Assembly (NCBI RefSeq): GCF_017348835.2
Contig: NZ_CP071375.1
DNA: 64,000 nucleotides
Direction: 5' to 3' (one strand)
Source: Escherichia coli
GTDB taxonomy: Bacteria > Pseudomonadota > Gammaproteobacteria > Enterobacterales > Enterobacteriaceae
This document shows, one piece after another, positions 37,620-38,824 of the stretch (positions are counted from its first letter, which is position 1; each line of letters opens with the position of its first letter). The notes beneath the pieces were generated by a model, which worked only from the letters and a program-made list of their open reading frames with translations, ran no database searches and was not told where the DNA came from. A program made the translations under genes and the position numbers.

Positions 37620-38824
37620 ATGCAACACAACTCATATCGCCGTTGGATAACCCTCGCGATAATTAGTTTTAGCGGCGGCGTTAGTTTCGACCTGGCTTAT
37701 TTACGTTATATTTATCAAATTCCCATGGCGAAATTTATGGGATTCAGCAATACCGAGATAGGTTTAATAATGAGTACCTTTGGTATTGCGGCTATTATTC
37801 TTTATGCCCCCAGCGGCGTTATTGCCGATAAATTTTCACACCGCAAAATGATTACTTCCGCGATGATCATTACCGGATTACTGGGTCTGTTAATGGCAAC
37901 GTATCCACCGCTGTGGGTAATGCTCTGTATTCAGGTCGCCTTTGCGATAACAACGATTTTAATGCTGTGGTCGGTGTCGATTAAAGCCGCATCGTTGCTT
38001 GGCGATCATAGCGAGCAAGGGAAAATTATGGGCTGGATGGAAGGGCTGCGCGGCGTCGGTGTAATGTCGCTGGCGGTGTTTACCATGTGGGTCTTTTCTC
38101 GCTTTGCACCGGATGACAGCGCCAGCCTGAAAACGGTCATAATTATCTACAGTGTGGTTTACATCTTGTTGGGGATTCTGTGCTGGTTTTTTGTTAGCGA
38201 TAACAACAACCTGTGCAGTGCCAATAACGAAGAAATTTTGGTGTCTTCACCATCTACGCCATTCTGAGTTACTCCACCAACTATCTGACCGAAATGTATG
38301 GCATGTCGCTGGTGGCGGCGAGCTACATGGGGATTGTGATCAACAAAATCTTCCGCGCGCTGTGCGGCCCACTTGGCGGCATTATCACCACCTACAGTAA
38401 AGTGAAATCCCCTACCCGCGTGATCCAAATCCTTTCCGTACTCGGCCTGCTGGCGTTAACTGCCCTGCTCGTCACGAACTCTAACCCGCAATCGGTCGCG
38501 ATGGGGATTGGCCTGATTTTACTGCTGGGATTCACCTGTTACGCCTCACGCGGGCTGTATTGGGCCTGCCCTGGCGAAGCAAGAACACCGTCTTACATTA
38601 TGGGCACCACGGTAGGTATTTGTTCGGTGATAGGATTCCTGCCGGATGTCTTCGTTTACCCAATTATCGGCCACTGGCAAGACACCCTGCCCGCAGCAGA
38701 AGCCTACCGCAATATGTGGCTGATGGGCATGGCGGCGCTCGGCATGGTCATCGTCTTTACCTTTTTGCTGTTCCAAAAAATTCGTACTGCTGATATCGCC
38801 CCCACAACGGCTAACAGCAAGTAA
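37620..38824 (+). pseudogene. yqcE: MFS transporter yqcE split into two frames (candidate frameshift or small deletion)
   Basis: ORF 37620-38267 ends ...NNEEILVSSPSTPF*. A second frame is open from about 38231 (NFGVFTIYAILSYSTNYLTEMYGMSLVAAS...) to 38824. Both halves are MFS-like; the break lies near 38228-38240. Confidence 0.6.

Follow-up and report, generated by a model that had tools for sequence, protein, structure and literature searches.

The yqcE gene of Escherichia coli K-12 encodes a 425-aa putative MFS transporter (WP_001164544.1) in a single full-length frame, with ygcW and ygcE as neighbours, and its product is a putative sugar-type membrane transporter. In a 2025 pan-genome paper, yqcE is placed among the 'extended-core' genes, with variable annotation (PMC12595684). 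A literature search for the function of yqcE found no paper, and none of the solved structures was matched in a sequence search with the intact protein. The best NCBIfam matches of intact YqcE are models of D-galactonate and phosphoglycerate transporters, far under their cut-offs. With TIGR00893 ('D-galactonate transporter' subfamily, anion:cation symporter-type), residues 36-404 align with positions 20-396 of the 399 of the profile, and at 65 bits, where the cut-off is 395, YqcE falls outside that subfamily.

The stretch of DNA analysed here (the window, 64,000 nt of E. coli) carries yqcE at the same locus as K-12, with the divergent ygcW on one side and ygcE 26 nt downstream on the other, an arrangement also found in PE164, F2_81 and DSM 103246. 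Outside a single gap, the window gene shares about 97.9% nucleotide identity with the K-12 gene, and 205 N-terminal and 195 C-terminal residues are collinear between the two. In the window allele, however, 73 bp are gone and the reading frame is displaced. The intact allele found to be nearest is that of DSM 103246 (WP_021577861.1), a 1278-nt gene that is 99.6% identical to the window allele, with 5 substitutions in 1205 nt; the flanks of DSM 103246 are more divergent from the window (98.9% and 95.5%), and its yqcE is likely the haplotype that existed before the deletion. On these comparisons, the window gene is best described as an orthologous pseudogene of K-12 yqcE and not as a functional member of the family. 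It is, very probably, a genuine and recently formed pseudogene of one lineage, produced by a single 73-bp deletion, from which no 12-helix transporter can be made. No observation runs counter to the structural part of this reading. The features concerned are collected in Table 1.

Table 1. Position of the yqcE pseudogene, its parts and its downstream neighbour in the window.
Feature	Position	Strand	Description
yqcE pseudogene	37620..38824	+	1205 nt, versus 1278 nt in the intact gene; flanked by ygcW and ygcE
N-terminal ORF	37620..38267	+	215 aa; helices 1-6 and most of the central loop
Deletion junction	38235..38236	+	73 bp missing (gene nt 617-689, K206-I230), from alignments with K-12 and DSM 103246
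Stranded C-terminal remnant, -1 frame	38237..38824	+	Native residues F231-K425
ygcE (FGGY-family carbohydrate kinase)	38851..40329	+	Intact, 492 aa; 26 nt downstream of yqcE

The first of the two ORFs begins with the ATG at 37620 and is closed by a TGA at 38265-38267, its C-terminal end reading FVSDNNNLCSANNEEILVSSPSTPF before the stop. It consists of 205 native YqcE residues followed by 10 out-of-frame ones (ILVSSPSTPF). It matches Pfam MFS_1 (PF07690) with an E-value of 1.4e-18 and 67.4 bits (gathering cut-off 33.4), the match joining residues 22-198 to positions 9-180 of the 347 of the profile, so that no more than the N-terminal half of the profile is covered. The second frame, at -1 with respect to this ORF, follows a TAA at 38225-38227, is open from 38228 and ends with the stop at 38822-38824, and its translation starts RNFGVFTIYAILSYSTNYLTEMYG. 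Its earliest start codon, the ATG at 38294 (M250), opens an ORF of 176 aa, and no Shine-Dalgarno-like sequence precedes this ATG (upstream sequence ctatctgaccgaaATG). The 176-aa product would begin inside the C-domain and hold about five helices; Pfam and NCBIfam searches with it returned no family match. An uninterrupted frame of 425 codons is absent from the window gene because of the premature stop, and twelve helices are not encoded in one polypeptide, the C-terminal half being out of frame and helix 7 half deleted. Since the sequence by itself determines this two-ORF layout, chance is not an issue. The initial annotation had described yqcE as an MFS transporter split over two frames, with the end of the first ORF as given here, and both the ORF list and the raw sequence confirm it. 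The total of about 400 residues that it had given equals the 205 + 195 native residues kept, versus 425 in intact YqcE, and the break that it had placed near 38228-38240 falls, by alignment, at the junction listed in Table 1.

Alignment with the K-12 gene reveals one structural difference, a clean 73-bp gap, and the same gap is the only structural difference from the DSM 103246 gene. In terms of the latter allele, the deletion runs from position 2 of codon 206 to position 2 of codon 230 and removes KQSFQLSDILAVLRISTTWYCSMVI. Because 73 is 24 × 3 + 1, the frame is shifted, and 10 codons further on a stop is reached. In a hydropathy analysis of intact YqcE, a helix falls at about residues 222-240, so that what the deletion takes is the last part of the central loop along with the first half of helix 7; and as intact YqcE is continuous with the MFS subfamily model over residues 36-404, the 25 missing residues are part of the normal 12-helix fold. 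The small out-of-frame deletion that had been suspected is thus borne out as to its nature, while its size has to be refined, since 73 bp, with half of helix 7, have been lost and not the 1-2 bp of a minor indel. As to how the deletion was formed, the alignments with K-12 and DSM 103246 show 0 bp of microhomology at its ends, on which ground slippage between direct repeats was rejected. In the intact allele the two ends of the deletion fall within short homopolymer runs that could pair, A5 on the left and T5 on the right. The reconstructed ancestral 133 nt, folded as DNA, gave -15.2 kcal/mol with z = -0.36 versus shuffles, no stem joins the endpoints, and a hairpin-mediated deletion was rejected as well.

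From its normal start, the mutant gene would still direct synthesis of a 215-aa product made of helices 1-6 and a 10-residue nonsense tail, while the 3' part, with helices 8-12, is stranded in another frame without a ribosome-binding site. With no 12-helix MFS transporter to be made, the transport function of YqcE would be lost, as judged from the reading frames. Cells could still produce the 215-aa N-terminal half and insert it into the membrane. Split halves of MFS transporters sometimes complement one another, as is the case for LacY. For annotation, the 215-aa and 176-aa ORFs called in draft genomes should be read as two pieces of one dead gene and not as separate proteins.

The occurrence of the lesion was surveyed with a 50-nt probe centred on the junction, with 25 nt on each side, in megablast searches with a word size of 28, such that intact alleles do not seed a match. 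The probe matches 2 of 5,426 complete E. coli genomes, namely PE164, from a pig in Nanjing, China, and F2_81, from a pig rectal swab in Australia. PE164 has been described as an O108:H9 hybrid aEPEC/ExPEC strain from a piglet with bloody diarrhoea (PMC12233904); a literature search on strain F2_81 found nothing. The locus itself, searched with 37400-38900, is present in 5,079 of the 5,426 complete genomes, and among the full-length matches listed nearly all measure 1,573-1,574 bases, versus 1,501 in the window. The deleted 73-bp segment is kept in 4,971 of the 5,426, at 96-100% identity. An exact-sequence look-up found the 215-aa product encoded on 23 contigs of other public sequencing runs; six of these contigs were returned and all six carry the junction, five with a 1205-nt gene identical to that of the window and one (L007) with the gene cut by the contig end. 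In a separate index, the exact 215-aa protein can be found on 18 contigs. PGAP annotates the identical sequence as a 'MFS transporter, frameshifted' pseudogene in both RefSeq PE164 and RefSeq F2_81, so that the loss of yqcE is already flagged by public annotation, and it is an ordinary lineage-specific gene loss.

Over 24 kb around yqcE, the window is matched at about 100% identity by PE164 and F2_81 and by no other genome at more than 97.7%, so these two are the sole complete-genome representatives of the lineage. The window differs from PE164 by six substitutions and one indel over 64 kb, and from F2_81 by one mismatch over 12 kb; by this measure it is a third, very close member, or an assembly version, of the PE164/F2_81 lineage. 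The contigs from other runs probably belong to it too, given 99.97-100% identity over 4-6.6 kb. Identical junctions set in near-identical flanks point to a single origin followed by clonal descent: the 73-bp deletion would go back to one event, in an ancestor from which a clonal, pig-associated lineage then inherited it. As regards its age, of the five substitutions relative to DSM 103246, the four located downstream of the deletion change no amino acid when read in the original frame. The fifth, R199C (window 38214), is the sole nonsynonymous one; it also occurs in 10 other genomes, two of which were checked and have a gene of intact length. Dating of the lesion from decay after the deletion was rejected, R199C being a standing polymorphism and no decay signal being present, and this lack of decay fits a recent event. 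The 73-bp junction, found in 2 of the 5,426 complete genomes, is a possible marker of the lineage, for use in PCR or as a k-mer. What is documented is one further lineage-specific gene loss in porcine O108:H9 E. coli of the aEPEC/ExPEC type, which renders the question of what YqcE and the ygc cluster do no more tractable.

Several other readings of the locus can be weighed against that of a pseudogene by deletion. The initial annotation had left a choice between a real pseudogene and a sequencing indel, and yqcE might indeed be intact, with 73 bases lost in assembly, considering that the PE164 assembly was built by Unicycler from Illumina reads (PMC12233904) and that one assembly alone could not rule out an error. 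Yet the junction recurs in F2_81, from an independent project in Australia, and in 6 of 6 returned contigs from other SRA/ENA runs; the window differs by a few bases from both complete genomes and is at least a third assembly; and a clean loss of 73 bp in non-repetitive sequence is atypical of read-level errors. An artefact is for these reasons extremely improbable. In none of these data sets is the frame restored, the junction being in every one of them, and the alternative of a sequencing indel falls on the identical junction in PE164, F2_81 and the six contigs, while the real pseudogene is supported both by the disruption relative to the 4,971 genomes that hold the 73 bp and by the lesion in independent data. 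It is very unlikely, if slightly less so than an artefact, that the two ORFs function in their present form, whether as two halves of a split transporter or through programmed -1 frameshifting at the AAATTTT that the junction creates, even though the C-terminal frame is indeed -1 and both the 215-aa and the 176-aa ORFs are predicted by gene callers. The layout is found in only 2 of the 5,426 genomes, the others showing one frame, so it is neither conserved nor common to the orthologues as two genuine genes would be. The codons of the zero frame over 38229-38267 are GAA GAA ATT TTG GTG TCT TCA CCA TCT ACG CCA TTC TGA, among which no slippery heptamer of the form X XXY YYZ fits, GAA ATT TTG at the junction giving none in phase, and even a perfect -1 shift would yield a protein without 25 residues, half of helix 7 included. 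Programmed frameshifting was rejected for the wrong phase, the unconserved layout and the incomplete product. A split transporter, for its part, would have to rely on an ATG (38294) without Shine-Dalgarno and on a 176-aa partner of some five helices without family match. The converse polarity, with the short form ancestral and the 73 bases inserted in other E. coli, draws on nothing but the formal symmetry of any indel; the long form is a single 425-aa ORF that aligns end-to-end with MFS models and occurs in 4,971 genomes at 96-100% identity, whereas in the short form the frame is broken, and this form is limited to one clonal lineage, and the probability of this reading is practically negligible.

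A different question is whether the deletion was favoured by selection, YqcE being disadvantageous in some host-adapted or pathogenic lineages and the deletion being one of many convergent hits. Other lesions of the gene bear on it. A truncated form of 188 aa that ends just before W189 (WP_001164550.1) is named from Shigella flexneri and occurs on 59 contigs, and 228-aa forms of YqcE match the A5 to A4 and T6 to T5 frameshifts reconstructed in the K-12 gene. Like the window allele, these 188- and 228-aa forms are independent inactivations around codons 189-206 that leave the N-terminal half; unlike it, they go back to apparent point or single-base lesions, whereas the 73-bp deletion has removed coding sequence too. 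N-terminal YqcE fragments form a 90%-identity cluster with 284 distinct members, and among the truncated products read (public protein clusters P0002-P0019) there are, besides the 188- and 228-aa forms, some of 141, 191 and 200 aa; several of the truncated products are on complete chromosomes. Taken at face value, these sequences suggest recurrent, independent inactivation of yqcE, although some of the single-base homopolymer variants may be sequencing errors. The gene has no match in 348 of the 5,426 complete genomes (about 6%) and appears dispensable, for which reason its loss would be tolerated.

The independent lesions elsewhere, with the 228-aa frameshifts and the 188-aa S. flexneri form seen on 59 contigs, and the spread of the deletion lineage between continents speak in favour of adaptive loss. 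Relaxed selection on a dispensable gene equally predicts recurrent loss, the homopolymer frameshifts of draft genomes may in part be errors of sequencing, a gene of intact length is present in more than 90% of genomes, and other decayed loci of the window (gudP::IS3 and the cas operon) suggest general gene decay in the lineage. Adaptive loss is on balance unlikely, albeit the least unlikely of the alternatives considered. Its stronger version, in which inactivation of yqcE would be selected again and again in host-adapted or pathogenic E. coli and Shigella, with the 73-bp deletion, the 188-aa truncation and the T6 and A5 frameshifts (codons ~190 and ~206) as convergent outcomes, and with homopolymer runs that might act as slippage-prone on/off sites, is more doubtful still. 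If it were true, the substrate of the ygc cluster would matter for fitness in the gut.

Besides ygcE, the genes ygcN, O, P, Q, R, S, U and W are annotated as intact and bear no pseudogene flags in PGAP, and the surroundings of yqcE had rightly been described as an otherwise intact ygc cluster, the flanking ygc genes being unflagged in that annotation. The ygcE gene is preceded by its own AGGAG ribosome-binding site, and a search of the + strand in the 3' part of yqcE found nothing resembling a promoter. From the premature stop to the start of ygcE, 584 nt are probably untranslated, and as such could lower ygcE expression through Rho-dependent polarity; a polar effect of the premature yqcE stop on ygcE could thus accompany the deletion.

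Two features of the divergent ygcW-yqcE region may relate to regulation of the cluster. On the - strand, just upstream of the ygcW start (37301), a near-perfect hairpin with a 19-bp stem and a T9 run (GAGAAAGGTAACTTCCCTCTCGCGGGGGAAGTTACCTTTCTTTTTTTTT) occupies 37323-37374; it precedes the ribosome-binding site of ygcW by about 20 nt, in the layout of a leader terminator, and is identical in K-12. An Rfam search at this hairpin gave no family match. YgcP of the cluster is annotated as a GlpP-type 'glycerol-3-phosphate responsive antiterminator', and on the strength of this annotation together with the hairpin it is proposed that the ygcW-U-S-R-Q operon may be under antitermination at this site. 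In the intergenic region between the two divergent genes, a perfect palindrome (TGTGAttacgaTCACA) at 37426-37441 matches the consensus half-sites of a CRP site, and this candidate site may place the divergent promoters of ygcW and yqcE under cAMP-CRP control.

Elsewhere in the window, gudP, the gene of a glucarate/galactarate transporter (about 57638-60304, - strand), is split by an element of the IS3 family, of which a second, 1.3-kb copy at 21476-22795 abuts cas3. An Rfam ALIL frameshift pseudoknot is present in both copies. In PE164, the copy within gudP has one base fewer at window position 59132, and PGAP calls its transposase 'frameshifted'. The type I-E cas operon (about 16911-21550, - strand) is decayed: cas3 and casA are present, a casB fragment runs into cas2e in the PGAP annotation of PE164, and the genes from casB through cas1 appear to be deleted. 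A CRISPR array (about 40967-41301) is still found downstream of ygcE. Two further Rfam hits on the - strand are ordinary features, a sok antitoxin RNA at 24335-24484 and the CsrB sRNA at 62360-62719, the former adjoining an annotated Hok/Gef gene and an integrase-core pseudogene.
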